Positions 13,177 to 30,118 of a DNA stretch of 34,912 bases are shown in pieces. The stretch is from positions 1 to 34,912 of the IMG/VR virus record IMGVR_UViG_3300046805_000140. One strand, written 5' to 3'. Under the pieces are notes generated by a model. It had not been told where the DNA came from. It saw only the letters and a list, made by a program, of their open reading frames with translations, and did no database searches. The position numbers and the translations under genes are program-made. Source of the DNA: a virus (Duplodnaviria; Caudoviricetes). Within the stretch, counting starts at the first letter, position 1, and every line of letters begins with the position of its first letter.

Positions 13177-13202
13177 ATCCTGAACACGATCTAAAACTGT
13201 TC
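13177..13202 (+). ncRNA. Compact H-type pseudoknot element, copy 1
   Basis: ATC-CT-GAACA-C-GAT-CTAAAAC-TGTTC. Confidence 0.6.
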
Positions 13203-13214
13203 CCAATTTTTGGG

Positions 13215-13418
13215 GCCGACGCACTCGGGCGTGTCGTGCTTTACGTACGATGTGATTTTTCTCACACACTTTGAGCGTCTCACTATTTGGATTTACTCGC
13301 TAGTAAGTTGATAATTTATGACTAATAGGCTAGACTTACATAGTAAGAAAAAATAAATAAGAAAGTCTATTTATCTACGGCGTGTCTAACACAAAATGTC
13401 AGCCACCTATGGTAAGAT
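13215..13418 (+). promoter_or_regulatory. Cassette regulatory block with two tandem promoters
   Basis: 22-nt exact repeat of 12171-12192; perfect TGTGA-N6-TCACA 13251; TTGATA-17-TAGACT 13308-13336; CGGCGTGTC 13378; TGTCAG-10-TAAGAT 13397-13418. Confidence 0.75.
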
Positions 13419-13450
13419 AGAATTATCAACAAAAAGAAAGAGGTTGGCAA

Positions 13451-13657
13451 ATGTCAGCAAATGTCTATACAATAGAACACCTACTAGTAGGAACACAGTA
13501 TCGCTCCCGAACACTATCAGGAGAAATTATCTCAGCAGAAAAACACCCTAACGCAGTTTGGTATCAGGGTTGCGAAAGTTATCTAGTGGAAGTGCGCCCT
13601 AGTAATTTTGGAAAAGTCGTATGTCGCACAGTAGCAGTAAAGGTAGAAAATAACTAA
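13451..13657 (+). CDS. Small beta-rich (SH3-like?) protein
   Basis: 68 aa; GAAAGAGG RBS. Confidence 0.7.
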   Translation: MSANVYTIEHLLVGTQYRSRTLSGEIISAEKHPNAVWYQGCESYLVEVRPSNFGKVVCRTVAVKVENN

Positions 13658-13779
13658 TGGGATACATAGAGATTTTTAGAATTGACAATGAGGGTGCAGG
13701 TTGGATAGACTTGGACAATGCAACACCTAGCGAATTGCTAGATTTAGAAATTGGACTATTTCAGGAAGGCGCTATCTAA
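13657..13779 (+). CDS. Small acidic protein
   Basis: 40 aa; TAATG overlaps on both sides. Confidence 0.65.
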   Translation: MGYIEIFRIDNEGAGWIDLDNATPSELLDLEIGLFQEGAI

Positions 13780-13931
13780 TGGGAGTAATGAAAGAATTGC
13801 ACTTAGAAATAACTACTTGCGACCTATGCTATGGCACAGGTTGGCTACACTTTGGCACTAGCGAGGACTACGATACAGAGTCTTGCGATTGCAACCCACA
13901 CCAATTATTTATCACTAAGGAGAATGACTAA
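13779..13931 (+). CDS. Small Zn-finger protein (CDLCYGTG...CDC)
   Basis: 50 aa; TAATG overlaps. Confidence 0.65.
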   Translation: MGVMKELHLEITTCDLCYGTGWLHFGTSEDYDTESCDCNPHQLFITKEND

Positions 13932-14149
13932 TGAATGACTATCTATACGCAGTAACTTCAACGAATGACAGTAGCCCTAGCCCTGAATGGGTTGGGCGTT
14001 ATAGCGATGCACTATCTGCAGTTGGTGCGTTCATGGCGTGCAATGATTTTGGAGATGCAAAAGAATACCGCACAATAAACATGTCAGAGCCTAGTGGCAA
14101 GATGCACACTAAGGTATTTTATCGTAATGGAAATGTAGGAGGTAAGTAA
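13931..14149 (+). CDS. Hypothetical protein
   Basis: 72 aa; AAGGAG RBS. Confidence 0.7.
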   Translation: MNDYLYAVTSTNDSSPSPEWVGRYSDALSAVGAFMACNDFGDAKEYRTINMSEPSGKMHTKVFYRNGNVGGK

Positions 14150-14422
14150 ATGGGAAGTGTTACAGCAATTGGAATTCAAGATAGTGTGTTAGATTTAGAA
14201 ACACAATTAGCCTATCACTTACAGGGTAATCACTATCCTCCCGTACCACTATCCATGGTTCAGCCCTGCATAGATGCTATTGACGCATACTATGATGAGG
14301 ACTATGAGCGATTTATTGCTATGCCTGAAGGCGTATTCTATAAAGGAATGAGCCACGCACCTGCACGAGCAATTATAGACCAACACCATTTATCTTTTTG
14401 GCTTCCAGAGGAGGAATACTAA
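14150..14422 (+). CDS. Hypothetical phage protein (HL..NHYPPVP...HHL..W)
   Basis: 90 aa; AGGAGG RBS. Confidence 0.75.
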   Translation: MGSVTAIGIQDSVLDLETQLAYHLQGNHYPPVPLSMVQPCIDAIDAYYDEDYERFIAMPEGVFYKGMSHAPARAIIDQHHLSFWLPEEEY

Positions 14423-14665
14423 ATGTCTGATACAATGATTGCTATGGATTTATTACACGCAGACAATCTCAAGCCAGATCAATTGATGCTTGGTGATTTA
14501 ATAAAAATTGGCGATGACATCGTTGAAATTATTTTTATTGAAAGTGATTCTACTGGAGATAACTATGACATACAAACCGAAAATGAATTTGGTGAAAAAG
14601 AAGTAACACAGTATAGTTATACTGATGAGATTCCTCTTTATGTTTTTATTGAAGAGAACGAGTAA
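14423..14665 (+). CDS. Small acidic protein
   Basis: 80 aa; GAGGAGG RBS. Confidence 0.7.
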   Translation: MSDTMIAMDLLHADNLKPDQLMLGDLIKIGDDIVEIIFIESDSTGDNYDIQTENEFGEKEVTQYSYTDEIPLYVFIEENE

Positions 14666-14699
14666 AAGTATTTTTATGCACTTCCCCGCATAAAAATGC

Positions 14700-14778
14700 G
14701 CCGACTCCGACGGCGTGTCGCATGTGAGATTTATCACAATTACGTAGTTTGACATTTTTCCCCCTTGTATGCTAAGAT
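14700..14778 (+). promoter_or_regulatory. Cassette regulatory block
   Basis: GCCGAC 14700; CGGCGTGTCG 14711; perfect TGTGA-N6-TCACA 14723; TTGACA-18-TAAGAT 14749-14778. Confidence 0.75.
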
Positions 14779-14784
14779 TAGTTT

Positions 14785-14931
14785 ATGAAGATACAAAAAA
14801 GCCCTGAGGAATTACGTAGACTAATGGAGTTACGTCGCTCTAATGCTGCCTCTTTTGTGCCCTCTAAAAATAGATATAAAAGGATTAGACAAAGTACTAG
14901 AAAAATGCTAGACTTATCTAAAGAACAATAA
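14785..14931 (+). CDS. Small basic protein (ELRRSNAA motif)
   Basis: 48 aa; leaderless start 6 nt after -10. Confidence 0.65.
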   Translation: MKIQKSPEELRRLMELRRSNAASFVPSKNRYKRIRQSTRKMLDLSKEQ

Positions 14932-14944
14932 AGGAGACCCCCGA

Positions 14945-15121
14945 ATGACATATGAAAATGATGAAATGCTAGATGAATACTATGCAACTGTATGCCCCTC
15001 ATGCAAAGAAAATGCGGTAGACGCATATGAAGAAAAATGCACCCATTGCTTACTAGAAGAAATGTCCGTACACTATAACGAAGACATTGCTCTAGAAATG
15101 AGCCTTGGCCTTGACTACTAA
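14945..15121 (+). CDS. Small Zn-finger protein (CPSC...CTHC)
   Basis: 58 aa; AAGGAG RBS. Confidence 0.65.
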   Translation: MTYENDEMLDEYYATVCPSCKENAVDAYEEKCTHCLLEEMSVHYNEDIALEMSLGLDY

Positions 15122-15845
15122 TACACTTAAACTAAAAAGATCTAATGATAGAAAGGTGGCTAACCTTGTCACAAAAAATGGAAAACAAGCAGCAATCGCA
15201 AATACCTTTGGCCTACCTGCTGGAAAGGCTTTCTCGTGCCCTGGTGCCACTAGTGTATGTGAAAGCGTATGCTACGCAGGAAAACTCGAAAAACTCTTCA
15301 AGGGCGTAAAGGCTAACCTATTACACAATTGGGAGTTACTAAAAGACGCTGATCATGACACGATGAGCCTATTGCTTACTGATATGATAAATGATTTCAA
15401 GGCAGACTGTATCAAGAAAGACGCTCCCATGCTATTCCGTATCCACTGGGACGGAGATTTCTTTAATGATACTTATACACAAGCATGGAAAGATGTCATC
15501 CTTAACAATACTGATATTCAATTTTGGGTATACACACGTGTTAAGTCTGCAGCCCTTATGCTAAAGGATATAGATAACCTGTCTCTTTACTTTAGTACTG
15601 ATAGTGAGAATGTAAAAATTGGTGTTGATCTAAAAATAAAATCTGGTGTACGCCTTGCATACCTTGCTAAGAACTTTGCAATAGGACAAGCAGACATGAA
15701 AGAAATGATAGGCAAGCCTGGTGCTAAGTGTCCTGAAAATCTAAAAGCCATTCCACTTATCTCAACTAATGGTAGCGCTTGCGTTTCTTGCGGATTGTGT
15801 GTATACTCTAAAGCAGACATAGTTTTTTCTGCTACTAAGAAATGA
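15105..15845 (+). CDS. Gp88-like protein (radical-SAM-like Fe-S fold)
   Basis: F.LPAG...CPGAT..C...CYA.K, FRIHWDGDFF, FWVYTR, C-terminal CP...C..C.LC. Confidence 0.75.
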   Translation: MALTTNTLKLKRSNDRKVANLVTKNGKQAAIANTFGLPAGKAFSCPGATSVCESVCYAGKLEKLFKGVKANLLHNWELLKDADHDTMSLLLTDMINDFKADCIKKDAPMLFRIHWDGDFFNDTYTQAWKDVILNNTDIQFWVYTRVKSAALMLKDIDNLSLYFSTDSENVKIGVDLKIKSGVRLAYLAKNFAIGQADMKEMIGKPGAKCPENLKAIPLISTNGSACVSCGLCVYSKADIVFSATKK

Positions 15846-15937
15846 GATAATAAATAATGAAACTATTTATTGCAACGTGTATTCTTCTACTAATAATTTT
15901 TATTTATCAGTGACTTGATAGATCCCCGAAAATGCGG

Positions 15938-16049
15938 GTCGGCGGAAAATCTTTGATTTGTCAAGTTACGACACGCCTTTAAGATGTGATTAAGGACACA
16001 CCCCAAAACCTCCACAGGATTTGTATTTATGACATTTTTTTGCTATAAT
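15938..16049 (+). promoter_or_regulatory. Cassette regulatory block
   Basis: GTCGGC 15938; TTGTCAAGTTACGACACGCC; TGTGA-N6-ACACA 15985; TTGTAT-17-TATAAT 16021-16049. Confidence 0.7.
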
Positions 16050-16092
16050 TATTACATAAGGAAAAAACAACTACCCGAAAGGAAAGACCCCT

Positions 16093-16263
16093 ATGACACT
16101 ATCAGGATACACATACCAAATTGGTGACCTATTCACCACTAGCAAAACAGGCGTTACAGGTCGTATCGCAGGTTTCGAGCCAATGTCTAATAAGGTTACC
16201 AGAGTTAGCCTAGTTTTGTCAAATGGCTCACGCCGTTTGGCTATGGTAAAGACCTCTAAGTAA
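16093..16263 (+). CDS. Small SH3/KOW-like protein, paralog of 16371..16535
   Basis: 56 aa MTLSGYTYQIGDLFTTSKTGVTG...; GAAAGGA RBS. Confidence 0.75.
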   Translation: MTLSGYTYQIGDLFTTSKTGVTGRIAGFEPMSNKVTRVSLVLSNGSRRLAMVKTSK

Positions 16264-16370
16264 TCTCAAAATGTGAGAAATGTCAGGTTTCGATTTGACA
16301 TTTTTACAACCAAAATGTTACACTTAGGTGTAAGCAAATAACAACCCCTAACAGAAAAGGAAAAAACAAA

Positions 16371-16535
16371 ATGACAGTATCAGTAGCAACTTACAAGGTT
16401 GGCGACACTTTCACAACACAGAAGTCAAAGGTTACAGGAACGATTATGGAAATCAACCCTAACGCCAACGGAACAGTTCGTGTGAAGTTAGATGTAGAGG
16501 GAACAACTCGCTACACAACTTGGAAAGCACAGTAA
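16371..16535 (+). CDS. Small SH3/KOW-like protein, paralog of 16093..16263
   Basis: 54 aa MTVSVATYKVGDTFTTQKSKVTG...; own TTGACA-18-TACACT promoter (16295-16324). Confidence 0.75.
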   Translation: MTVSVATYKVGDTFTTQKSKVTGTIMEINPNANGTVRVKLDVEGTTRYTTWKAQ

Positions 16536-16561
16536 TCTAACAAGCCAGTTAGATAGTAACT

Positions 16562-16591
16562 TAGTCCTGAGCATGACTACTAAAACTGCTC
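16562..16591 (+). ncRNA. Compact H-type pseudoknot element, copy 2
   Basis: TAGTC-CT-GAGCA-T-GACTA-CTAAAAC-TGCTC. Confidence 0.7.
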
Positions 16592-16626
16592 AACACCCCC
16601 ACTAACAGAAAAGGAAACAGACCCAA

Positions 16627-17049
16627 ATGGCAAGAGGAAAAGCAATCTCAGTAAAGATACCTACACAACGAGTAATCGCAGGACTAGAAGCATCACTAGC
16701 AAAACTAGAAGCAGACTACGCATCACAGGAACAAAAGGAAGCACAGTATCAAGAACTATACAAGGCTTGGCAGAAAGAGTTAGCAGATTTCGCTATTACT
16801 AATTTCTCAAAGGCTGAGAACATCAGAACTAACTTCCGTCATTGGAACAAAAACCTAAACATTGACTTCGACATCACAGTAGTAGAAGGTCAATTCCCTG
16901 CTGAGCCTGTAAAGGATTTTGATACAATCCATCAGCACACCTATCGTGAGCAAAAAGAGGAAATGCAAAATGCAATTCGTATCCTCAAAATGACAGATGA
17001 GGAAGTTGTAAATACTTCCACATACAATGCGGTTGCTCGTTATCTCTAA
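16627..17049 (+). CDS. Hypothetical coiled-coil phage protein
   Basis: 140 aa; GAAAAGGA RBS. Confidence 0.8.
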   Translation: MARGKAISVKIPTQRVIAGLEASLAKLEADYASQEQKEAQYQELYKAWQKELADFAITNFSKAENIRTNFRHWNKNLNIDFDITVVEGQFPAEPVKDFDTIHQHTYREQKEEMQNAIRILKMTDEEVVNTSTYNAVARYL

Positions 17050-17055
17050 ATGAGG

Positions 17056-17191
17056 TTGGGTGGGGTGTAAAAGCCCCACTCCAATTCGCCAGGCTGATTA
17101 GGGCGATCACAGAAATACTATAGAGCAAGGCTACTGCAGGCCTAAAGAAGCAGACATCCTGAGCAGGATCCAAAAAGGCTCCCCGCAAGGG
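17056..17191 (+). ncRNA. Multi-hairpin structured intergenic RNA ending in pseudoknot copy 3 (17156-17181)
   Basis: Stems GTGGGGT/GCCCCAC, TCGCC/GGCGA, CTGC/GCAG, then ATC-CT-GAGCA-G-GAT-CCAAAAAG-GCTC and CCC-GCAA-GGG. Confidence 0.5.
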
Positions 17192-17255
17192 TCCTTGACA
17201 AATGTCAGTGGCCAGTAGTACAATTAAACTAACCAACAAACAGAAAGAGGCCCCC

Positions 17256-17675
17256 ATGGACCAGTCAACAAATATCGTAGTAAATGCAACAGAAGAGTTT
17301 CTTCGTGATTCGCTAGCAAAAGCAACATTGCGTGTTACACAACTTGAGGAGCACATCCAAAAGGTAACCCAACGTTCATATGCAGATTCTGCAGAACGTA
17401 ACCGCATTACAGAAGAAATGCAAGAATGGACCCTAGGCGCCCTAGAGTCAGGAACTATCAATGAAACAGAAGCAGAAGAGATTGCTGCAATTGTTGGATT
17501 TGAACTAACAAAAGAATTTGAAGTTGAAGTAACAGTTTTGTATTCAATGACAATTAATGCACGTGATGAAGAGTCTGCACAAAATGCGGTCCACGATATT
17601 GATTTTGATACTGTGCAATACAATGATGAAAATATTTCATGGTTGTCTGCCAGTGTTGACCGTGTAGAAATTTAG
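17256..17675 (+). CDS. Hypothetical acidic protein
   Basis: Start reassigned to ATG 17256 (GAAAGAGG RBS; promoter TTGACA-18-TACAAT 17195-17224). Confidence 0.8.
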   Translation: MDQSTNIVVNATEEFLRDSLAKATLRVTQLEEHIQKVTQRSYADSAERNRITEEMQEWTLGALESGTINETEAEEIAAIVGFELTKEFEVEVTVLYSMTINARDEESAQNAVHDIDFDTVQYNDENISWLSASVDRVEI

Positions 17676-17725
17676 TAGGGGGCTACTAAACCAAAGACAT
17701 GTCGCATGTCTCTAAACTAGGCAAG

Positions 17726-17754
17726 GGCCCTAAGCATGGCCATGTAAACTGCTT
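17726..17754 (+). ncRNA. Compact H-type pseudoknot element, copy 4
   Basis: GGCC-CT-AAGCA-T-GGCC-ATGTAAAC-TGCTT followed by T-tract. Confidence 0.7.
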
Positions 17755-17774
17755 TTTTTATTTGCAAAAAATTC

Positions 17775-17895
17775 GCCGACCCATTTTTCTTAATTTGTCA
17801 AGTTACGAACCTGTGATTAAGATCACCTGAAAAATGTCCGATTTATCCCTATCTAACTATCCTGATTTGCATTTGTCAGCCCATCCTGCTATACT
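17775..17895 (+). promoter_or_regulatory. Cassette regulatory block
   Basis: GCCGAC 17775; TTGTCAAGTTACGA; TGTGA-N6-TCACC 17812; TTGCAT-17-TATACT with TGTCAG at 17874. Confidence 0.7.
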
Positions 17896-17930
17896 TAGAA
17901 TTCAACAACAAAAAGAAAGAAGGAAAACCT

Positions 17931-18953
17931 ATGGCACATGACCTAGAAATACAAAACGGCAAGACATCTTTTGCGTCTTTCCGTGAACCTGCATGGCATG
18001 GATTGGGTACTGTATTCACAGAAGAAAAAACAACCGCAGAAATGTTAGAGGCTGCAAGTCTCAATGGTTGGAATGTTCGTCTTGAGGATTTAGAAACCCC
18101 TACACATCTAACAAGCGACAAGGCATACCAGTATGTTTTGCGTACTAACCCTACAGACTCAACACAGACAGACATTCTTGGTGTCGTTGGTGAGCGCTAT
18201 CATGTTATGCAGAATGAAGATTTATTTTCATTTGGTGATAACATTCTTGATGGTGGTGGGCGTTGGGAGACTGCTGGTTCAATCAAGGGTGGGCGTGTAG
18301 TATTTGGCGCTCTTGCTCTTGAGCGTGAAACAATTCTTGACCCTAATGGTGTATCTGATAAGGTAAAAACTTATTTGCTCATCAACACATCACACGATGG
18401 CTCAATCGCTATTCAAGCAAGCATAACACCTGTTCGTGTTGTGTGCGCTAACACTCTCAACCTTGCTCTTGGTGGCGTAGGTCGCAAGAAGAATAAGAAC
18501 ATCAAGCAATCTTTCAAGATTCGCCATACACAAACTGCAAGCGGTAAGGTACAAGTTGCTCGTGAGACTCTTGGTCTTGCTAACGCTTACATGGACGAAT
18601 TCGACATCATGGCTAAGGCAATGATTGAGAAGCAAGTCAATGCTAAGCAATTCAATGACATTGTTCTTGCTGCTTATACAAAGCCTGAAAAAGATTCTAA
18701 GGGTGCTGTAAAGAAGTGGGAAAACAAGATTGACATCATCAACGACATCTACACAGGCGAATTCAATGGAATGATTGCTGGTAATGCGTGGGGTGCTTTC
18801 AATGCTCTAACTGAGCGCCTTGATTGGTATCGTTCTGCTCGTGGTGGTTCTAACGAATCTATCCTTGCAAGCGCAAGCGGATTTGACCCTGCTATCAACG
18901 CAGAAAAGAATCGTCTGCTAAAAGTTGTACAGAATGTAATGCAACTCGCATAA
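17931..18953 (+). CDS. DUF932 family (TIGR03299 phage/plasmid-like) protein
   Basis: MAH......REPAWHGLG, LGVVG.RY...QN, ETAGS..GG..VF, YLL..TSHDGS, TPVRVVCANTL, IRHT, AWGAFNA.TE..DW. Confidence 0.9.
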   Translation: MAHDLEIQNGKTSFASFREPAWHGLGTVFTEEKTTAEMLEAASLNGWNVRLEDLETPTHLTSDKAYQYVLRTNPTDSTQTDILGVVGERYHVMQNEDLFSFGDNILDGGGRWETAGSIKGGRVVFGALALERETILDPNGVSDKVKTYLLINTSHDGSIAIQASITPVRVVCANTLNLALGGVGRKKNKNIKQSFKIRHTQTASGKVQVARETLGLANAYMDEFDIMAKAMIEKQVNAKQFNDIVLAAYTKPEKDSKGAVKKWENKIDIINDIYTGEFNGMIAGNAWGAFNALTERLDWYRSARGGSNESILASASGFDPAINAEKNRLLKVVQNVMQLA

Positions 18954-18959
18954 CAAAAA

Positions 18960-18987
18960 AATTCCTAAGCATGAATTAAAACTGCTT
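18960..18987 (+). ncRNA. Compact H-type pseudoknot element, copy 5
   Basis: AATTC-CT-AAGCA-T-GAATT-AAAAC-TGCTT, 3 nt before tRNA-Asp. Confidence 0.7.
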
Positions 18988-18990
18988 CAC

Positions 18991-19064
18991 GATTCGTTAG
19001 ATCAATTGGTTAGATCGCTACCCTGTCACGGTAGAGGCTACGGGTTCAAGTCCCGTACGAATCG
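18991..19064 (+). tRNA. trnD: tRNA-Asp(GTC)
   Basis: Acceptor GATTCGT/ACGAATC, D-stem GATC/GATC, anticodon arm CTACC-CTGTCAC-GGTAG, T-loop TTCAAGT, discriminator G; no encoded CCA. Confidence 0.92.
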
Positions 19065-19224
19065 CAATAAATAAATATGCAACGCAATGCATAAAAATCG
19101 GGCCGACCAAAAATGTCAACTCTAAATTTAATTACGAACATCGGCATATTTCCCCTAAAATGTCAAACCATAAAATCTTTACGAAGAACTTGACATTTCC
19201 CCCAAACCATGCAATAATTAATAC

Positions 19225-19383
19225 ATGACCCAAACCCTAAGAGTACAAGAACTAGTTGACCATATCTATGATGAAAACTTAAATCATTTTGAGTTTCATG
19301 AAAACATGGGTGGAGAAGATTGTGACTGCCACCTACACATAACCCTAGAAACCATTGTAAAGTATTGGGAGGAACTATGCTAG
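19225..19383 (+). CDS. Small hypothetical protein (CDCH)
   Basis: 52 aa; leaderless after TTGACA promoter at 19190. Confidence 0.65.
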   Translation: MTQTLRVQELVDHIYDENLNHFEFHENMGGEDCDCHLHITLETIVKYWEELC

Positions 19384-19529
19384 GCTATACAGAAACAGAT
19401 ATTGCAGTAATGACAGATGCTATGGAAGATGCTATCAAATCAGGTAGATTGTCTTCTGAGATAACAGATGGTTTGGAGAAGGCTATGTCTTTCTTTGATG
19501 GCCTATGGGCAGAAGGGTACTTTGACTAA
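19377..19529 (+). CDS. Small hypothetical protein
   Basis: 50 aa; GGAGG RBS. Confidence 0.65.
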   Translation: MLGYTETDIAVMTDAMEDAIKSGRLSSEITDGLEKAMSFFDGLWAEGYFD

Positions 19530-19639
19530 TGCATAATCATTATTGGGAATGTGATGATGTACCAGGATATTTTTACTGTGCCTGCGGAGTTACGGCTATC
19601 CATAACAGAGAAACAGGATTGAAGGACATCCATGACTAA
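19529..19639 (+). CDS. Small hypothetical protein (H.HYW...CACG)
   Basis: 36 aa; TAATG overlap. Confidence 0.55.
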   Translation: MHNHYWECDDVPGYFYCACGVTAIHNRETGLKDIHD

Positions 19640-19721
19640 AGAAGATATCATTGTTATATGTGAACAGGCTATTGATGCCTTAGAAGAAGTCCGTGCCTAT
19701 TTAGTTAATCAAGGAGACTAA
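19632..19721 (+). CDS. Small helical peptide
   Basis: 29 aa; AAGGA RBS. Confidence 0.55.
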   Translation: MTKEDIIVICEQAIDALEEVRAYLVNQGD

Positions 19722-19722
19722 T

Positions 19723-19953
19723 ATGTGGAGTAAATATACATTTGTTTGTGACCCTGATGAGTGTGATGCCCTGGTTGAGTTTACTGTTAGAGATGGCTTT
19801 GGCTTTCCCCTGGGATCTGTAGAGATGACCTGCCCATGTGGTAGGAAGTTAAATTATATTAGTTATGAAGATGCTTGGGAGCCTATCCTTGCAGATGTGA
19901 CGAAGATCACACCCAGAGAAGTTGTAAAAATCAACACAAACCCCTATAATTGA
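19723..19953 (+). CDS. Small Zn-ribbon protein (CDPDEC...CPCG)
   Basis: 76 aa; AAGGAG RBS; 3' end contains a perfect TGTGA-N6-TCACA (19896) and a promoter. Confidence 0.7.
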   Translation: MWSKYTFVCDPDECDALVEFTVRDGFGFPLGSVEMTCPCGRKLNYISYEDAWEPILADVTKITPREVVKINTNPYN

Positions 19954-19956
19954 TAT

Positions 19957-20109
19957 ATGGACCTAAACACATTCAAAGAATATATAAACCTACACCTAAT
20001 CAGTCTTGAACAAGACCTTGAAGAAAACCCTGCCTCTATCCATGTGGTAGATATCGAGGGACAAATCTATGCTACTAAACATCTAATGGAGGTTCTTAAT
20101 GAGCGATAA
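19957..20109 (+). CDS. Small hypothetical protein
   Basis: 50 aa; leaderless, TATAAT 6 nt upstream. Confidence 0.65.
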   Translation: MDLNTFKEYINLHLISLEQDLEENPASIHVVDIEGQIYATKHLMEVLNER

Positions 20110-21528: not shown

Positions 21529-21553
21529 GCTGGGTCGCTTAGACAAACTAAAT

Positions 21554-22076: not shown

Positions 22077-22081
22077 GAGTT

Positions 22082-22102: not shown

Positions 22103-22120
22103 AATTCGGCTCGGCGATTT

Positions 22121-22916: not shown

Positions 22917-22922
22917 TGATAT

Positions 22923-23042: not shown

Positions 23043-23046
23043 TCTA

Positions 23047-23235: not shown

Positions 23236-23238
23236 ATC

Positions 23239-23364
23239 ATGGACAAGTTAGAGTCCTCATACAATAAGTTTATGGGCTATCGCATAGCCTGTACCCAGTG
23301 TGATGTTTTATATATCAAACCAAATGATACTCCATTTGTCTGTCTTACCTGCCTATCAGATTGA
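23239..23364 (+). CDS. Small Zn-finger protein (CTQC...CLTC)
   Basis: 41 aa. Confidence 0.55.
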   Translation: MDKLESSYNKFMGYRIACTQCDVLYIKPNDTPFVCLTCLSD

Positions 23365-23379
23365 TGGTATACTGTTTAA

Positions 23380-23901: not shown

Positions 23902-24230
23902 AAATCGGGGGACATAACAACCTTGATAGTCTTATTGACCATACGGATCAAGCCTTTCTTTGATATCCGTGATGCATCAAATGTCTCCGTATAACCTCCT
24001 TGTGGCATATCTTCCTTATGTAGGAATGGCTTATGCTTCTTCTTAAGTGTTTGTATTACTAGGGATTCTACGGCTCTTGCCTTATCCCGTTCGAAAAAGT
24101 GCCAATAGGATACTAGGATCCATCCTTTGGTCCTATGAGAGGCAAACCTCTTACCTGTGATATCTGAGATACCCACCTTAATAGCCTTGTGTATGGGGCT
24201 GTAGAGGATGTATAGGATGGCTTCGTTCAT
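23898..24230 (-). CDS. GIY-YIG/T5orf172-like nuclease
   Basis: LYIL......KVGIS.....R...H...A..VE...GGYTETF; leaderless start 24230. Confidence 0.75.
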   Translation of the reverse strand: MNEAILYILYSPIHKAIKVGISDITGKRFASHRTKGWILVSYWHFFERDKARAVESLVIQTLKKKHKPFLHKEDMPQGGYTETFDASRISKKGLIRMVNKTIKVVMSPDF

Positions 24231-24279
24231 ACCCCTATTATACTTGACATACAATGCCAAATTGGGATACAATAGAGTT

Positions 24280-24399
24280 ATGACGCATATTACGAAGTGC
24301 CCTACATGTCACCTATTGATTGAAGATGATACTTTTTGGGAGACTCATCAAACCATGTCAGATGGTCATATCTGGTGCACTAAGAAAGGCAAGCGATGA
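24280..24399 (+). CDS. Small Zn-binding protein
   Basis: CPTC...H...H..C; TTGACA-17-TACAAT upstream. Confidence 0.6.
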   Translation: MTHITKCPTCHLLIEDDTFWETHQTMSDGHIWCTKKGKR

Positions 24400-24602
24400 T
24401 TAATATGGAGATACCAGATCCATTTCAAACCTTTGTATCAAAGAAATATGCAAATGCTAAAGGCTATGTCCATGATTGGTTTAGCGGTGAATGGTCTTAT
24501 ACTTGCTCTACTTGTAAAGAAGGTCTTTCTGGTCCGTCCCGCAAAATATTAACAAAGATAAGATTGTTTCATACTAGGAATGAGTGTTTAAATGGCTACT
24601 GA
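24396..24602 (+). CDS. Small Zn-finger protein
   Basis: CSTC...H....C; ATGA overlap. Confidence 0.65.
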   Translation: MINMEIPDPFQTFVSKKYANAKGYVHDWFSGEWSYTCSTCKEGLSGPSRKILTKIRLFHTRNECLNGY

Positions 24603-24687
24603 ATGCAGTCATACTTGGTATATGCGTGAAGATGGTATACAATGTACTAAGTGTTTGGTTATATGGGAGAGCGATGAAAGAACCTAA
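24592..24687 (+). CDS. Small Zn-ribbon peptide (CSHTW...CTKC)
   Basis: 31 aa. Confidence 0.5.
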   Translation: MATECSHTWYMREDGIQCTKCLVIWESDERT

Positions 24688-24790
24688 GATTATACAGATG
24701 GACTGGAAAGCACTAGGATATGAAAGGATGTATGTAGATGGACGGATCAAGTGGGTTCCTCAGCAGATCAAAAACGATTCAGAGGACTAG
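24674..24790 (+). CDS. Small hypothetical protein
   Basis: Start reassigned to ATG 24674 (GGGAG RBS). Confidence 0.5.
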   Translation: MKEPKIIQMDWKALGYERMYVDGRIKWVPQQIKNDSED

Positions 24791-24998
24791 GATAGTACCA
24801 TTACGATGGATAGGTAATTTCCTTGGTGAATATGCAGGCAATCATTTAGTTAAGGCTATTGATTTAGATGAGGCATTAGATAGTAATTTAGGATTTCGTT
24901 ATAAATACCACGCCAAAATGTGGAAATATCTTAATAAGCCTTATGAGTGGTGGGGTACTTCCTATACTATAGATATGGAAGCGTGGAGAGAAAACTAA
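24738..24998 (+). CDS. Hypothetical protein
   Basis: 86 aa ORF; start uncertain. Confidence 0.55.
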   Translation: MDGSSGFLSRSKTIQRTRIVPLRWIGNFLGEYAGNHLVKAIDLDEALDSNLGFRYKYHAKMWKYLNKPYEWWGTSYTIDMEAWREN

Positions 24999-25066
24999 CA
25001 GATGTCGAGTCGAAGACTCGTATGGTTGTTTAAGTATCTCTATTTTCGCCGAACTTTAAAAGCGTA

Positions 25067-25315
25067 TTAAGCGATTTCGCCCGAACCTGTAATCGATCCA
25101 GCGCCGTCAATACCTTTAGGGAATGTGTATAGAGTCCAAGAACCGTTTGGTGCTCCGCCCACTTCTGGTGCGTACCCTGGGTTGCCTGGGTTGCCAGTGC
25201 GAATGAAATAGTATCCTGCTATACCGTAGGGGTTACCGTCTGTAAGAACTGTTGCTCCTAAACCGTAGTACCCTCCATTGTTATAGAGACCTTGATAATT
25301 TGGTGGAGTTGTCAT
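25067..25315 (-). CDS. Gly/Tyr/Pro-rich hypothetical protein
   Basis: 82 aa; TGATATAAT 7 nt before ATG. Confidence 0.7.
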   Translation of the reverse strand: MTTPPNYQGLYNNGGYYGLGATVLTDGNPYGIAGYYFIRTGNPGNPGYAPEVGGAPNGSWTLYTFPKGIDGAGSITGSGEIA

Positions 25316-25371
25316 AAGATTATTATATCATCGTATTTGACATAGCCTGCCAAGCACGGTATAATTAAAGT

Positions 25372-25515
25372 ATGACAAACCAAGAGATAGCAAAACTATT
25401 GGATCAAGAATCCTATCGCATATGGGACACTACTAAGGTTATTAAGAATCAAGACTATCACGATGGATTAGTAAAAGGACTAAAGATGGCATCTAAATTG
25501 GTGGCTAAACTATGA
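25372..25515 (+). CDS. Small hypothetical protein
   Basis: 47 aa; TTGACA-17-TATAAT leaderless. Confidence 0.65.
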   Translation: MTNQEIAKLLDQESYRIWDTTKVIKNQDYHDGLVKGLKMASKLVAKL

Positions 25516-25685
25516 GCCTAGACGAAATGACATTACGAGAAGAGATTGCAAGGGCTATTGAAGCCATTTCAATTGAAGAATCTGTAACTAATGCAGTTGG
25601 TATGCGTATGCTTGCTGCAAAGGTAGCAAGAGGAGAAGATAATTATATGACAAACATGTTTGAATTGCAGGTTGATTTCGAATAA
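25512..25685 (+). CDS. Small hypothetical protein (LREEIARAIEA)
   Basis: 57 aa; ATGA overlap. Confidence 0.65.
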   Translation: MSLDEMTLREEIARAIEAISIEESVTNAVGMRMLAAKVARGEDNYMTNMFELQVDFE

Positions 25686-25709
25686 TTGCTCGTATGATAT
25701 AATTATATA

Positions 25710-25847
25710 ATGATTGCAACTAGAAACGAAGATAAATGTCACTATTGTGATAAGGCTGGGTTATATACTCAACTTGTTGGAGAAGATCCAGACTATTCTA
25801 TGGCTCTAGTATGCAAACGGCATTTGATCTTTGACATGTCGTCCTAA
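25710..25847 (+). CDS. Small Zn-finger protein (CHYC...CKRH)
   Basis: 45 aa; leaderless TGATATAAT. Confidence 0.65.
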   Translation: MIATRNEDKCHYCDKAGLYTQLVGEDPDYSMALVCKRHLIFDMSS

Positions 25848-25865
25848 GTATGATATGATTGTTAT

Positions 25866-25991
25866 ATGAAAAATACTTATAAGTGTCCAGAATGCAAAAC
25901 CTCTATTGTAATTACTACTAAGGTTCATTCTCTTCCTGAATCCATCATGTGTCCCTGCGATATTGTGATGCCATTAGAATCATCTAAATAA
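25866..25991 (+). CDS. Small Zn-ribbon protein (CPEC...CPC)
   Basis: 41 aa; leaderless. Confidence 0.65.
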   Translation: MKNTYKCPECKTSIVITTKVHSLPESIMCPCDIVMPLESSK

Positions 25992-25992
25992 A

Positions 25993-26211
25993 ATGTGGTC
26001 TTGGGTCTTAGCCTTCATTGGCGTGTCTGGAATATTCTTGGTTGGTCGTAAGACTATCTGGGGATGGATAGTCTTGTGCGTTAATGAATGTCTATGGATC
26101 GTATACGCCTTAACAACAAAGCAATATGGTTTTATATTTGCAGCAGTAGCATATGGAATCGTATACATTAAATCATTTATGCATTGGAGAAAAGATGAAC
26201 TTTCAGTCTGA
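25993..26211 (+). CDS. Three-TM PnuC/SemiSWEET-like membrane protein
   Basis: W......G..G..L.GRK..WGW......LWI.Y....QYG......Y......F..W. Confidence 0.7.
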   Translation: MWSWVLAFIGVSGIFLVGRKTIWGWIVLCVNECLWIVYALTTKQYGFIFAAVAYGIVYIKSFMHWRKDELSV

Positions 26212-26632
26212 GTCAAAAAGGTCTGGGGATAGGTTTGAAGACTTAGTTCTTTTAGATTTACAGGCTAGAGGATTTAATAAGATAGATAAGAATGTATACA
26301 TGCCACGTACTGGATGTGAGGTAGACTTTGTTGCCCATGGGGATAGGTTTGAATATGTAGAGTGCAAGGGTGGTCTTGAAGGTGAAAAGAAGCGTCCTGG
26401 TGCAAAGAGAACAGACAATGTAAAGAAGGCTGTTGCTAACGGATCAATCATGAAGAAGGTGTATGAGGAGATGTACTATGTTGTATATTTTTCTGACACA
26501 CCTGAGCCAGGATCTTATTCAGATGAGATGATACACATAGCATTAAAGTATGGTATTATTGATGAGGTGAGATACCTACTGCCAAGCAAAGAAGAGCAAG
26601 CAGTACAACTATTTGAAGGAGCATTACAATGA
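26195..26632 (+). CDS. PD-(D/E)XK nuclease
   Basis: G..FE..V...L...GF, EVDFVA, YVECKG; ATG 26195 with GGAG RBS. Confidence 0.75.
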   Translation: MNFQSESKRSGDRFEDLVLLDLQARGFNKIDKNVYMPRTGCEVDFVAHGDRFEYVECKGGLEGEKKRPGAKRTDNVKKAVANGSIMKKVYEEMYYVVYFSDTPEPGSYSDEMIHIALKYGIIDEVRYLLPSKEEQAVQLFEGALQ

Positions 26633-26931
26633 AACTAGAAGCAGGAATTGGGTACCTAACAGAATGGTACAAGAATAACGATGGATCATTAGTTAGAGAT
26701 TTTACATTTAGAGATTTTGGTAATTACGTATGGATTGTTAAGCAGTTTGCAAAGCATGAAGATGAGACACAGGTTGGTATGAATATGGCTCATCAGTTAG
26801 ATCCAAACAGTGGTGGCGTAACTGAAAGAAGTGTTGATGATATTTGTAACAAGGCACTTCGCAAAGAAGATGCTCTTTATACTGAGTTGCAGTTTACACA
26901 CGACTGTACATGCTGCGCTGCATCAATCTAA
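26629..26931 (+). CDS. Hypothetical protein
   Basis: 100 aa; AAGGAG RBS; ATGA overlap. Confidence 0.7.
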   Translation: MKLEAGIGYLTEWYKNNDGSLVRDFTFRDFGNYVWIVKQFAKHEDETQVGMNMAHQLDPNSGGVTERSVDDICNKALRKEDALYTELQFTHDCTCCAASI

Positions 26932-26952
26932 AACTATTAGTAAGGGAAGTTT

Positions 26953-27636
26953 ATGACTGGTAAGTTAGTTGTTGGCTCTATGCCAATTGGAAATCCAGAT
27001 GATATCACTATTAGAATGCTTAAGGCTATACATGATTGCGATATTATTTATTCTGATTACTTACCAGATAATATAAACAATCTTTTAAAGTTATATAGTA
27101 TAGAGAAAGAAGTTGTTGTTCTTAATAGTACTAACACTATGCATGCAGACATGGATCAGGTTAATGATGTTGTGCTGCTTATATCCCGTGGTAAAACCGT
27201 TCTTCTTGTTGCTGGTGAGGGACAAGTAGGCGTTGCTGATCCAGGAACACAATTTATACAAGCATGTATAGAAAAGTCTTTGCCGTATACCGTGCTTCCT
27301 GGACCTAGTGCATTCATGACTGCGTTTGTTGCTAGTGGAATAGTTAATGGTGATTTCTTTATATCTTGCAACATGTCAAAGCCAGAGGATGTTTTAGAAA
27401 GATTTAGAACATCTGGAACTCCCGTAGTTGTCTTGGTATGGCAAGATAAACTAACACCTATACTAGAACATGTAAGAGATTGTTTTTCAATAAACAAGAT
27501 TATAACTCTTGCATGTGATATGACCATGGATTCAGAAATGTTCTTAACTGGAACAGCAAAAGAATTATTGGCTAATCCAAGGTTTAAACTAATTAATCAA
27601 TCAACAAAGATTGCATTAGTTATGCATGACAACTAA
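26953..27636 (+). CDS. rsmI: RsmI-like tetrapyrrole-methylase-family SAM methyltransferase
   Basis: GKL.V...PIGN..DIT.R, G..V.LV...G...V.DPG, LPGPSA..TA...SG. Confidence 0.75.
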   Translation: MTGKLVVGSMPIGNPDDITIRMLKAIHDCDIIYSDYLPDNINNLLKLYSIEKEVVVLNSTNTMHADMDQVNDVVLLISRGKTVLLVAGEGQVGVADPGTQFIQACIEKSLPYTVLPGPSAFMTAFVASGIVNGDFFISCNMSKPEDVLERFRTSGTPVVVLVWQDKLTPILEHVRDCFSINKIITLACDMTMDSEMFLTGTAKELLANPRFKLINQSTKIALVMHDN

Positions 27637-28196
27637 GACAGGAACCTAGTAATAGCATACTTTGTTCCAGATTTAATTGGTAAAGAAGTATGAGAAAATA
27701 GATAAGACGATGGGAATATTAGCAAGGTATCTGATATAGGGCTTACAATTTTATCAAAGTTGTGAAATTGTAAATCTCCACCTTCATAGTTATCGTTTAC
27801 ATAGTAAACAAGTGAGACTCTAGACTTGAATGATCCGTGGTCATCGTGATGTCTTTTAAATGTATTTCCCTCTTCATATTTTAAACACTGCCAATGTGTT
27901 GATCCTAGAGGGCTAAAGGTTGCTTTATATTCAGTACAGTAATCATAAAGCCTATCGGTTATTGGCCTCAACAGTTCATTAAGTTTTACTGCTGTTTCAT
28001 CTACAACTTTGTCAGTTGCAGCAAAAGATATCTGCCAGAAGTTGTGTTTATCTTTATTTGGTGGACGATCCCATGTTTTATTTAAGGTGTTTGCATACTC
28101 TTCAACGTCAGGAATAACGTCGATACCTTGCAGTACATTGTGATATCTGTGAACACCAGGCATAAGCAATTCATAATCAAACATACTACTTTCCAA
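27633..28196 (-). CDS. Prolyl-4-hydroxylase-like 2OG-Fe(II) oxygenase
   Basis: KY.EG..F..HHD, SLVYYVNDNYEGG.L.F, IFPS...F.H...P..SG.KY. Confidence 0.85.
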   Translation of the reverse strand: MESSMFDYELLMPGVHRYHNVLQGIDVIPDVEEYANTLNKTWDRPPNKDKHNFWQISFAATDKVVDETAVKLNELLRPITDRLYDYCTEYKATFSPLGSTHWQCLKYEEGNTFKRHHDDHGSFKSRVSLVYYVNDNYEGGDLQFHNFDKIVSPISDTLLIFPSSYLFSHTSLPIKSGTKYAITRFLS

Positions 28197-28734
28197 ATCC
28201 TACTATTACAAACCTATCTGCATCCCTAACCTCTGACACTTCGTGAGTAAAAAGATAGGCTGATGGGAAAACTAAAAACTCATTTTTCTTTGGCTGTATT
28301 CTTAAATTTATTAATGGGAAAAATATTTCACCACCAGTATAGTCATCATTTATATATAAAACAGTTGATACACGTCTAGGGTGACTAAAAGTATCATCTT
28401 TGTGTGCTCCAAAAAAACAGCCTGGCTCATAAATCATTGCTCTAGGTGTTTCATGTTCAAGAAGTTCAACATCATATTTTTTGCAATAGTCTAACAAGAT
28501 CTCATCTAACTTTTTAATTTTATCTAAAACACTAACAGCAAAGTCATCGTTCTTAAATAGTACATATTGGTGATAAGATCTGCTTAACTTTCCAGGGTTT
28601 CTGTGGTCTGGCCAGGTATCGTGTTTCCATTTATCAGAGGCTGAACTATCTTTCATGTATGACAACAAACCATCGATATCATCAAGAACGTTGCTATAAA
28701 GAACAACTCCTGGGAATAATTCTTTTTCTTCCAA
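28186..28734 (-). CDS. Prolyl-4-hydroxylase-like 2OG-Fe(II) oxygenase
   Basis: HKD, YINDDYTGGEI.F, FPS...H.V...R. Confidence 0.85.
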   Translation of the reverse strand: MEEKELFPGVVLYSNVLDDIDGLLSYMKDSSASDKWKHDTWPDHRNPGKLSRSYHQYVLFKNDDFAVSVLDKIKKLDEILLDYCKKYDVELLEHETPRAMIYEPGCFFGAHKDDTFSHPRRVSTVLYINDDYTGGEIFFPLINLRIQPKKNEFLVFPSAYLFTHEVSEVRDADRFVIVGFGK

Positions 28735-28735
28735 G

Positions 28736-29467
28736 TTAGTAAGTTTCTTCTATTTTAAACTGTTGCTTGTTTAATTCAGAAATATAACTTAACTTTGCCT
28801 TGTATGGGTTTGGAAGTTTGTTTAATCTTTTTTGTTTTTCAACCTCATCGATGTTGCAGAAGAAGGCAACCATTGTATATCTTGGCTCACCCTCACCAAT
28901 ATCTGTAATTCTGTGCTCGTATATGTAGGATGATGGGAATAAAAATAGTTGATTTGCTTTTGGCTTTATCTTTACACCAAAGTGAATGAATTCTAGTTCC
29001 CCGCCTTCGTATGCATCATTAGGGTAGTAGACCATAGAAACTGTTCTTGGTGTACCATATGAATCATCTGGGTGCATTCCAAAATAATCTCCTACTTTAA
29101 ATTTACTAATTCTCCACCACTCACGGCTTCTAGTATCTAGATCGTAGTGCCATTGGTATGAGTCTACAACCTCTTCAAATGCTTCACAAAGCATCTCATC
29201 TCTTCCGTCTTTGTCTCCTGATTTAACCCATGCGCTAACACCTTGCTTACCAACTTCTTTTGGAATGGGATTTCCGTCAGCGTCAATAATATAATCTTCT
29301 CTTTCAAACTTGCCTTCTGCATCTAGTGTTCTCATAAAATCCATGCCACCATCCCATACATTATCGTATATGTGCACTCCAGGTGCTGGGGATGTGTATT
29401 CAAATGCATTACCTTTTCTACTTACGGTAATCATTTTTTCTTTGTTGGCTAACTTGTCTTGATCCAT
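28736..29467 (-). CDS. Prolyl-4-hydroxylase-like 2OG-Fe(II) oxygenase
   Basis: HPD, YPNDAYEGGELEF, FPS...H.I...RY; ATG 29467 with GAAAGAG RBS. Confidence 0.85.
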   Translation of the reverse strand: MDQDKLANKEKMITVSRKGNAFEYTSPAPGVHIYDNVWDGGMDFMRTLDAEGKFEREDYIIDADGNPIPKEVGKQGVSAWVKSGDKDGRDEMLCEAFEEVVDSYQWHYDLDTRSREWWRISKFKVGDYFGMHPDDSYGTPRTVSMVYYPNDAYEGGELEFIHFGVKIKPKANQLFLFPSSYIYEHRITDIGEGEPRYTMVAFFCNIDEVEKQKRLNKLPNPYKAKLSYISELNKQQFKIEETY

Positions 29468-29575
29468 GGTGAATTCTCTTTCTTGTAGACTATACAATTA
29501 TAGCACATTGTGATATAATAAGTATACCTGCCCAAATGGGGGTAAATTAACTTATTCGCTTGAAAGGGGAATAAC

Positions 29576-29989
29576 ATGGTAACAACAACCTTGGATCTTT
29601 TTAATGATCCTTTTTTTATTGGCTTCAACAGAGAGTTGAGTCGCCTAAACACAGCACATAAAACAAACTCACACACATATCCTCCTTATGATCTTCTAAA
29701 ACTAGATGAAGACACATATAGAATCTCATTGGCTATTGCTGGATTCTCCAGGGAAGATATTAATGTATCAGTAGAAAATGGAACTCTTATCATTAAAGGT
29801 GAGATTGTAGAAGTAACAGATGCTGAAGTGGTCCACAAGGGCATTGCTGGTCGTAGATTTGTACGATCCTTTGCTCTTGGAGAATACATGGAAGTAACTG
29901 GGGCTGAAATGAAGGATGGTATGCTACACATTAATGTAGACCGTATTGTGCCTGAAGATAAAAAGCCAAAATCTATTGAAATTAAGTAG
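29576..29989 (+). CDS. hsp20: Small heat-shock protein Hsp20 (IbpA-like)
   Basis: YPPYD, LAIAGF, L.IKG, HKGIA.R.F.RSF.L, A.MKDGML.I, PE..KP..I.I. Confidence 0.92.
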   Translation: MVTTTLDLFNDPFFIGFNRELSRLNTAHKTNSHTYPPYDLLKLDEDTYRISLAIAGFSREDINVSVENGTLIIKGEIVEVTDAEVVHKGIAGRRFVRSFALGEYMEVTGAEMKDGMLHINVDRIVPEDKKPKSIEIK

Positions 29990-30002
29990 TATAATTGGAT
30001 AA

Positions 30003-30118
30003 CATTCCGAAACCAAGACTTTAAAAGGTTTTTGTAACGGATGCTCTATCGATTAGAGAGTTAGCAGGAGTCGAATCTTCGTGGCTAATAGACCTGAGCA
30101 GTAGTCTATAAACTGCTC
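30003..30118 (+). ncRNA. Structured intergenic RNA ending in pseudoknot copy 6 (30088-30118)
   Basis: TATAAT at ~29990; stems CATTCCG/CGGATG, AACC/GGTT, CTCTA/TAGAG, TTAGC/GCTAA; then ATAGAC-CT-GAGCAG-TA-GTCTAT-AAA-CTGCTC. Confidence 0.6.

Follow-up and report, generated by a model that had tools for sequence, protein, structure and literature searches.

A widespread, uncatalogued ~28-nt RNA pseudoknot predicted at the ends of phage genes, a candidate barrier to exonucleases

The window analysed here is the whole 34,912-nucleotide (nt) stretch of the IMG/VR record IMGVR_UViG_3300046805_000140, an entire linear viral contig (Caudoviricetes) estimated to be 32% complete, whose host we infer to be a freshwater actinobacterium. 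Between its genes lie seven sense-strand copies of a short repeat (Table 1) that is predicted, from the sequences, to form one conserved H-type RNA pseudoknot of about 28 nt with two interlocking stems, P1 and P2. An earlier note on this DNA had described six of them on the + strand, and all six were found where it placed them, with the stems it gave. The degenerate seventh copy that it suspected also exists; its true span is 17695-17722, and it is a conserved variant with a 9-nt loop. The attachment to gene ends that had been proposed stands as well, with P1 beginning 6 to 106 nt past a stop codon and one copy ending just ahead of tRNA-Asp. Downstream of the seven copies, the next feature is a promoter match ahead of the next open reading frame (ORF) in five cases, a tRNA in one and an ORF in one, and a terminator scan of the window gave no convincing terminator at the copies. 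The 340-amino-acid (aa) ORF before copy 5, whose function is not known from its family, resembles Streptomyces phage proteins, those of Bmoc (Stanwilliamsviridae) among them; positions 1-20,000 of Bmoc hold no copy of the knot.

Table 1. The seven pseudoknot copies and neighbouring features of the window
Feature	Position	Strand	Stop to P1 (nt)	Remarks
Pseudoknot copy 1	13177..13202	+	6	P1 3 bp, P2 GAACA/TGTTC; past stop of ORF 13018-13170
Pseudoknot copy 2	16562..16591	+	26	P1 5 bp, P2 GAGCA/TGCTC; next ATG 35 nt on
Pseudoknot copy 3	17156..17181	+	106	Variant, AAAAG junction, 4-bp P2; promoter match 13 nt downstream
Seventh copy	17695..17722	+		9-nt-loop variant, P1 AGAC/GTCT; in tandem with copy 4
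Pseudoknot copy 4	17726..17754	+	50	P1 GGCC/GGCC, P2 AAGCA/TGCTT; then U-rich run, then promoter match
Pseudoknot copy 5	18960..18987	+	6	Past stop of 340-aa ORF; 3 nt before tRNA-Asp
Pseudoknot copy 6	30088..30118	+	98	P1 6 bp, 3-nt L2; past Hsp20 stop; -35 match 3 nt on
Small ORF before copy 1	13018..13170	+		Without PHROG family
54-aa ORF before copy 2	16371..16535	+		Without PHROG family
140-aa ORF between copies 2 and 3	16627..17049	+		Without PHROG family
139-aa ORF before tandem pair	17256..17675	+		Without PHROG family; start inferred from promoter and Shine-Dalgarno
340-aa ORF	17931..18953	+		phrog_1221; 52% identity to Streptomyces phage proteins
tRNA-Asp(GTC)	18991..19065	+		Rfam search of window
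Hsp20 gene before copy 6	29576..29989	+		phrog_432, E 9e-38
Promoter-like site after copy 1	13397..13418	+		TGTCR-N11-TANNNT, consensus match only
Promoter-like site after copy 3	17195..17224	+		Consensus match only
Promoter-like site after copy 4	17874..17895	+		Consensus match only
Sigma-70-type promoter match directly after copy 6	30122..30150	+		Consensus match only

A strict descriptor (P1 of at least three pairs, CU, 5-bp P2, linker ending in AAAC) has five matches in the window against a mean of 0.04 and a maximum of 1 in 100 dinucleotide shuffles. A loose one has six against a mean of 1.0 and a maximum of 6, so only the strict form clearly beats chance inside the window, and homologues decide the rest. 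A relaxed form also matches 18354-18375 within the 340-aa ORF, which we take as chance. The general pattern P1-CU-P2-P1'-AAAC-P2' proposed earlier describes five of the six copies well; copy 3 departs from it in its shorter P2 and in the AAAAG that replaces AAACU at the junction. Folding the six regions as nested structures gave z-scores of -1.2 to +0.5, which say nothing either way because the method cannot model a pseudoknot. A covariance model built from 97 copies outside the window, all with GAGCA as P2, recovered four of the window copies with E<=0.0015; the two that diverge most had E-values of 0.18 and 5.

Homologous positions were compared in the best 80 of 382 stretches around the 340-aa ORF (88-100% identity), one of which, L001, is practically the same genome as the window. 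The element is present in 69/77 homologous spacers at the site of copy 2, in 65/80 at copy 3 (11 of these with the AAAAG junction) and in 62/62 at copy 4, against a background of 0.0005 for these three sites. The AAAAG junction itself recurs at 25, 11 and 3 homologous positions. At copy 5 a script found the element in 79/80 relatives, and the eightieth (L022) differs by one P2 mismatch. Copy 1 has a homologue at the same position in L001 only, and the context of copy 6 is the same in L082, L083, L126, L141 and L166. All 252 strict matches in the 80 relatives lie on the sense strand, the relaxed descriptor gave 388 sense matches versus 7 antisense, and none of 182 copies lies inside a long ORF; frequent antisense or intragenic copies, which would have spoken against the fold, are thus not seen.

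Both stems covary, as had been claimed, in sets of homologues that were not picked on the stem in question. For P1, 97 IMG/VR matches were picked by the fixed core alone, at its most frequent spacing, out of 143 distinct core matches of which 139 form at least three P1 pairs. The inner variable positions are paired in 97/97 and 96/97, with all four Watson-Crick types at both; the closing pair is C-G in 96/97 and the outer pair forms in 75/97, a pairing score that none of 500 shuffles reached. For P2, sequences were taken by position. All 56 distinct segments behind the 340-aa ORF (80 loci) show the element, and in 42 distinct 29-mers, with one segment of longer linker excluded, 98% of the P2 positions pair. 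Both partners have changed together at three of the pairs (in 7, 4 and 1 sequences), and two sequences have U·G at one pair; since the 42 sequences are related, these cells are not independent events. A structure-first scan in which only AAAC was fixed had 252 occurrences in 80/80 loci versus 1 in shuffled loci, and returned the C-G pair with CU in 100/122 distinct matches and nine P2 sequences. The preferred P2 is GAGCA (73/100 strict homologue matches), and the loop base before P1' varies (U, A or C). What stays fixed is a core of a C-G closing pair, the CU loop, an A-U pair and the AAAC linker, about nine invariant bases in 28 nt. These bases may well form major- and minor-groove triples that would make the knot hard to unwind.

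The seventh copy is informative in its own right. Its P2 consists of three pairs, a purine-purine pair, a 1-nt bulge and an A-U pair, with AAACUA as the spacer. The same variant occurs in 22 loci (18 distinct sequences), collected by position and with no requirement for pairing. Of the 18, 11 have G·A as the purine pair and 7 have A·G; G·G and A·A occur in none. The adjacent A-U pair is invariant in the variant copies. In 20 sequences, themselves selected for pairing, the three outer pairs are intact throughout and show compensatory changes.

The position of the knot was followed in three data sets, cited here always in the same order (182, 133 and 116 copies, the last from GTDB), with ORFs of at least 45 aa called by a simple heuristic. 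Counted from the upstream stop, the closing C lies most often 8-11 nt away, and its distances break off at a hard edge of 7-8 nt; the separation is at most 14 nt in 97/182, 63/129 and 44/100 copies and below 7 nt in 0, 1 and 2. Stop triplets peak 8 nt upstream even when no gene calls are used (0.24 and 0.20, versus about 0.05-0.08 at most other offsets). P1 therefore starts about 4-7 nt past the stop, which is roughly the mRNA entrance of a terminating ribosome. In long spacers (at least 80 nt, excluding copies followed by a tRNA and the 28 loci of a peptide class described below), the knot hugs the upstream stop, not the next start: it lies within 14 nt of the stop in 28/103, 14/39 and 16/34 cases (4.3, 2.6 and 1.9 expected) and within 30 nt of the next start in 0, 9 and 3 (9.6, 5.9 and 4.4 expected). 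The start of the next gene is at least 9 nt and mostly at least 17 nt from the knot, whose fold never sequesters that gene's Shine-Dalgarno sequence. The knot pattern stands ahead of 79/121, 19/34 and 1/6 tRNAs, mostly by 3-9 nt, and is found within 60 nt after none of these same tRNAs; the order stop, knot, tRNA recurs in Arthrobacter phage Molivia. In three Saccharibacteria elements (L267, L275, L293) the knot sits about 8 nt past a stop and at most 10 nt from the end of a convergent gene, with no sense gene behind it. A tally of gene orientation (48/67 copies between co-directional genes) does not discriminate.

The motif is a real, very widespread and uncatalogued pseudoknot. Its exact core occurs in about 5,400 IMG/VR stretches, an estimate from 2 of 64 parts, and in about 440 GTDB stretches (18 of 64 parts), where 111/121 matches also form P1. 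Among the groups named in the record titles are Saccharibacteria, Firmicutes, Chloroflexi, Aminicenantes, Cyanobacteria, Actinobacteria and Bacteroidota; many of these records were binned from metagenomes and could be phage contigs placed in the wrong bin. The cultured carriers in which inspection by eye placed the knot are Mycobacterium phage Labelle, Arthrobacter phage Molivia, Staphylococcus phage StauST398-3, Vibrio phage D456 (with a CC loop), Lentibacter phage ICBM3, the crAss-like phage cr7_1 and a microvirus. The family spans phages, prophages, conjugative elements and bacterial chromosomes. Among the matches listed, the near-full-length ones in cultured phages are mostly from Firmicutes, Actinobacteria, Cyanobacteria and Alphaproteobacteria hosts, with no Escherichia, Salmonella or Pseudomonas phage, and a weak search of 28 Gb of E. 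coli genomes with one 34-nt query gave no match. An RNase_J_C match was present in 28/50 carrier genomes and absent from 22/50, including two chromosome-level genomes and an isolate, so RNase J is not required by the knot; this hand-picked sample, biased to long contigs and Gram-negative phyla, gives no reading on RNase J enrichment. RNase J is described as rare in beta- and gamma-proteobacteria in the available text of PMC3997798.

The earlier note could assign the element to no named family, and none was found: an Rfam search of the window returned tRNAs only, and 20 homologous GTDB loci also gave no relevant match. The motif was not met in the literature searched, which was mainly openly readable. 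Its core strings are absent from six supplementary files of PMC10690425, which reports 10,006 candidate viral RNAs among which the motif may sit unnamed, and it is unmentioned in the accessible part of a recent preprint (bioRxiv 10.64898/2026.09.22.753630). A fold found in thousands of viral contigs and many bacterial phyla is thus absent from Rfam. A string match in a Tombusviridae preprint proved to be chance.

The list of analogues drawn up in the earlier note omitted both this breadth and the closest known system, the coremin motif (xrRNA-C) of beny-, cucumo- and other eukaryotic RNA viruses (PMC6546385, PMC10520033; statements on these and the other papers compared here refer to the portions of their text that were available). 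The phage knot is akin to coremin in structure. Both have a first stem of 3-5 bp in which pairing is conserved over sequence and which closes with C-G (PMC6546385); a U-A closing pair is tolerated in coremin and occurs in 3/122 distinct matches of the phage knot. Both begin the loop with a pyrimidine and place its penultimate A opposite the U of AAACU, a pair that is A-U in 39/42 positional homologues, 20/20 variant copies and six of seven window copies. Coremin loops of up to 8 nt are known, and coremin, like the phage knot, is often found at or just past stop codons. The seventh copy adds to this likeness a G·A pair beside the A-U pair, with AAACUA as spacer, which is the arrangement proposed for coremin; at the position after AAACU the six standard copies have a Watson-Crick pair, and the variant has G·A or A·G.

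There are also differences. The coremin loop YG(N)nAD needs G at its second position (PMC10520033, where an octaloop exception is listed), and the phage knot has U there in seven of seven window copies, with C-U in 100/100 strict homologue matches. The last loop base is C in 19/182, 11/133 and 21/116 copies, which the coremin consensus, in the text available, bars. P2 of the phage knot is a 5-bp Watson-Crick stem, unlike the non-canonical pairing of coremin. A coremin-type second hairpin directly downstream was seen in 13%, 21% and 18% of copies versus 26%, 19% and 28% in shuffles, a count that excludes copies followed by a tRNA and may miss the 2-bp minimal hairpin reported for coremin (PMC10520033). 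Resistance of coremin to Xrn1 requires both the loop G and the second hairpin (PMC10321173, PMC10520033). Because it lacks both, the phage knot is not a member of coremin, and it may still work like one. Coremin resides in eukaryotic RNA viruses and the phage knot, known from sequence alone, in DNA phages, conjugative elements and bacterial chromosomes, where its position, unlike that of coremin, points to the end of the upstream gene. Among the titles and abstract openings listed for 14 papers that name coremin, none deals with phages or bacteria. A related class, xrRNA-WCC (PMC10321173), shares with the phage knot a canonical second stem that joins the loop to bases past AAAC and shows compensatory changes, and an A-minor role has been proposed for its spacer adenosines. 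It differs in its 4-nt loop and in depending on a G in L1, on G-C pairing of the spacer C and, for Xrn1 resistance, on the second hairpin; the L1 of the phage knot is CU, and the base opposite its spacer C is U, A or C and rarely G.

Other small pseudoknots offer looser parallels. The frameshift and readthrough pseudoknots of luteoviruses and poleroviruses (BWYV-type) are likewise compact and H-type, with a C-containing short L1 and an A-rich L3. The spacing of the phage knot, whose P1 starts some 4-7 nt past the stop, is like that of recoding pseudoknots. PreQ1-I aptamers and ToxI pseudoknots are of similar size and share the H-type topology and A-rich third loop; preQ1-I has an invariant ligand-pairing C and an expression platform in the 5' leader, and ToxI forms tandem repeats upstream of its toxin gene. 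The phage knot, unlike preQ1-I, has no invariant ligand-pairing base, and unlike ToxI it forms no tandem array ahead of a toxin gene. RTS elements (PMC7518266, as far as its accessible text goes) resemble the phage knot as structures directly past the stop codon of bacterial mRNAs; they are a statistical folding signal without conserved sequence or topology, and the phage knot is one defined fold with invariant bases.

Among the roles that the earlier note had offered (an exonuclease block or processing signal, a terminator, a protein tag, a decoy), the 3' exonuclease block appears to fit the sequence evidence best. Our leading candidate, put forward tentatively, is that the knot serves as a compact barrier against 3'-to-5' exonucleases and so shields the 3' end of the message upstream of it; that it is a nuclease barrier in one direction or the other is the broader claim, which we consider probable. 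The former is favoured because the knot hugs the upstream stop and precedes tRNAs without ever just following them, because some Saccharibacteria copies have no sense gene behind them, because five of seven window copies are followed by a promoter match with no convincing terminator, and because carriers occur both with and without RNase J. Small pseudoknots are reported, in the portion of PMC13042712 available, to protect the 3' ends of engineered RNAs. In such a scheme the 7-8-nt edge would correspond to the reach of the terminating ribosome, so that the knot would stay folded on translated mRNA in the cell. A new 3' end would arise downstream, whether RNase P removes a tRNA 3-9 nt further on, an endonuclease cuts, or read-through reaches the region of the next promoter. 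Trimming by PNPase, RNase R or RNase II would then proceed back to the knot and stall there, and each small gene cassette would gain a stable end without a terminator hairpin. Phages could thereby tune single genes within long transcripts without terminators or proteins, and synthetic biology would gain a 28-nt stabiliser. Labelle and Molivia, both cultured and both with harmless hosts, make function directly testable.

Several observations pull against a 3' barrier. The sole characterised look-alike, coremin, blocks in the opposite, 5' direction, and a ribosome-stop signal or simple genome compaction would also produce stop-hugging. In Firmicutes phages and prophages (L256, L265, L269, L337:3000-3030) the knot lies ahead of scaffold genes, and in a microvirus (L342) shortly ahead of the capsid gene; such placement weighs against a 3' role because protecting the downstream RNA would make more sense there. 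Nine of the 39 long-spacer IMG/VR copies are 18-30 nt ahead of a start. Crass-like phages (L339:1074-1430; L343-L367) have the knot in the intervening segment of a permuted transfer-messenger RNA (tmRNA), a segment that should be discarded, and 4 nt separate the end of the last knot from the coding piece. In GTDB, 26/116 copies overlap the stop of a gene for a Cys/His peptide of about 20 aa, often with an ordinary terminator behind. The tRNA evidence is narrower than its counts, since 93/99 knot-before-tRNA cases are one orthologous tRNA-Asp site and the independent placements number about eight. The relatives are not an independent set, and the gene calls are heuristic. Lake metatranscriptomes contain up to 0.47 of the region's words, as contigs only; single contigs span copies 1 and 3, one stops at 30085 and others start at 30169-30174. 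Because of strain mixture and possible DNA these contigs are unusable for RNA ends or levels.

The opposite polarity would make the knot a coremin-type roadblock: after an upstream cut it would stall RNase J or a 5'-monophosphate-scanning RNase E and stabilise downstream genes, tRNA precursors or 3'-untranslated RNA. The coremin-like closing pair, the first stem conserved in structure only, the loop pyrimidine, the A-U pair and the G·A of the seventh copy all suit this idea, as do the host spectrum of the listed cultured-phage matches, the placement before scaffold and capsid genes and the tmRNA piece, and the block that a flavivirus xrRNA imposes on bacterial RNase J1 (in the available text of PMC5760640). 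The missing second hairpin and loop G tell the other way, and there is no overall tie to downstream starts; the knot never directly follows a tRNA, the place at which a new 5' end is made, and it is carried by genomes without an RNase_J_C match and by crAss-like and Vibrio phages. We regard the 5' roadblock as rather unlikely. A wider proposition, doubtful though somewhat less so, is that the knot represents a prokaryotic branch of coremin, a protein-free mechanical block of about 28 nt that sets RNA ends against exonucleases in either direction. The G·A/A·G flip of the seventh copy might then be, with the same reserve, a natural intermediate that displays the pairing of the non-canonical coremin pseudoknot. 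Were the prokaryotic branch real, this would be the first natural nuclease-resistant RNA family common to bacteriophages and eukaryotic RNA viruses. Coremin still awaits a solved structure (PMC10321173, PMC10520033, available portions), and the phage family offers deep natural covariation, including the flipping G·A pair, toward it.

The hard edge and the 8-11-nt peak in three data sets would also be expected of an RTS-like ribosome stop that blocks post-termination sliding or re-initiation and so insulates the next gene, tRNA or promoter region. Structures just past stops limit re-initiation in E. coli (PMC7518266), and coremin stalls scanning and elongating ribosomes in vitro (PMC10321173, PMC10520033), by the accessible parts of these papers. 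We think this role improbable: many copies have no nearby downstream start, those in the tmRNA segment have no evident ORF before them, the stop codon of the peptide class sits inside the knot, and a plain hairpin would suffice, leaving the invariant core unexplained. Invariant unpaired CU and AAAC, the preference for GAGCA, a terminator-like place before promoters and a minority of U-rich tails could instead point to a binding site for a host or phage protein or to an RNA polymerase signal (pause, factor-dependent termination or antitermination). The carriers span unrelated phyla and element types with no common neighbour gene among those scanned, triples can explain the invariant bases, and P2 changes are compensatory, so that pairing is kept rather than sequence; the chance of such a signal seems slim. 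A self-cleaving RNA or endonuclease site that splits polycistronic transcripts would suit a knot that stands where transcripts have to be processed, between genes, between gene and tRNA and in the tmRNA intervening segment. With only some nine of its 28 nt invariant, no match to an Rfam ribozyme, redundancy directly before an RNase P site and no mention of self-cleavage in the available text on coremin (PMC10321173, PMC10520033, PMC6546385), it is very unlikely. The ToxI-like decoy and the preQ1-like ligand sensor, suggested by size, topology and the A-rich third loop, fare worst and are scarcely credible: there is no Rfam match at E<=5, the copies are dispersed singly at gene ends, the base before P1' varies, and no Shine-Dalgarno is sequestered. 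A ToxN (PF13958) search gave no match in this roughly 32% complete record, and its control gave none either.

Several further candidates were rejected or found no support. The terminator idea of the earlier note is not supported as a general role, since at least six U in the next nine nt follow just 25/182, 16/133 and 14/116 copies (12-14%) and one of the seven in the window, and copies also precede tRNAs, the tmRNA piece and scaffold genes of the same run. Recoding is opposed by slippery heptamers before the stop in just 2/97, 0/62 and 0/42 cases, by stops that are mainly UAA and by short, scattered read-through frames. A tRNA-like acceptor mimic would call for ACCA, which follows just 16/182, 13/133 and 1/116 copies. 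A boxA-like site was ruled out because P2' changes with its partner strand, and a promoter-proximal leader because few of the copies far from a stop have a -10 box close upstream.

The unusual settings deserve fuller description. In unrelated Firmicutes phages the knot lies between minor head and scaffold or major capsid genes, and 83 Staphylococcus records matched. The crAss-like tmRNAs carry one or two knots in the intervening segment, in 25 stretches (21 distinct) found with a purpose-built pattern. The peptide class (18-26 aa, roughly MKRF..PR.AHC..GC...S) appears to be a stand-alone chromosomal gene with its own promoter and Shine-Dalgarno; it terminates at the UGA that the knot itself supplies, or at a UAG immediately ahead of it. 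It occurs in Aminicenantes, Thermodesulfobacteriota, Deltaproteobacteria, Anaerolineae and others (L218, L222, L230, L245, L255, L260, L270, L276, L287, L292, L319 and others, plus L234), beside varied neighbours (HldE-like, PHP phosphoesterase, ArsR/ArsM, MerA, PerR-rubrerythrin). The peptide has no NCBIfam match, and its motifs were not found in the literature searched. Selenocysteine read-through of the knot's UGA was rejected here, as the following frames vary, some stopping before it or again at once, and no NCBIfam match was found. Copies in apparent conjugative elements (L219, L267, L271, L275, L283, L293; L223, L241) follow DUF3768/DUF2958/DUF7249 or ArdA antirestriction genes; some of those in Saccharibacteria face a convergent gene, which in L267 encodes a relaxase-like Replic_Relax protein. 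Knots may also cluster within short stretches (L196:301-470, L231, L306, L332), in L332 between short direct repeats.

Within the window, promoter matches are absent between copy 2 and the next ATG. TGTCR-N11-TANNNT sites (11476, 12373, 13397, 17203, 17874) head small-gene cassettes, with 14 matches in the window against 3.3 expected. A second intergenic repeat (GCCGAC ... GGCGTGTC) recurs at 13214-13270, 14698-14740, 15938-16000, 17775-17830 and 19100-19110, and is followed, upstream of the cassette promoters, by a TGTGA-N6-TCACA-like palindrome, which we take to be CRP/GlxR-like. The spacers ahead of copies 3 and 6 (17052-17150 and 29995-30087) are longer and structured, with a hairpin at 17055-17086 and more stems, and look conserved in relatives. 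At least three genes resembling 2-oxoglutarate (2OG)-Fe(II) oxygenases flank the Hsp20 gene (28736-32446).

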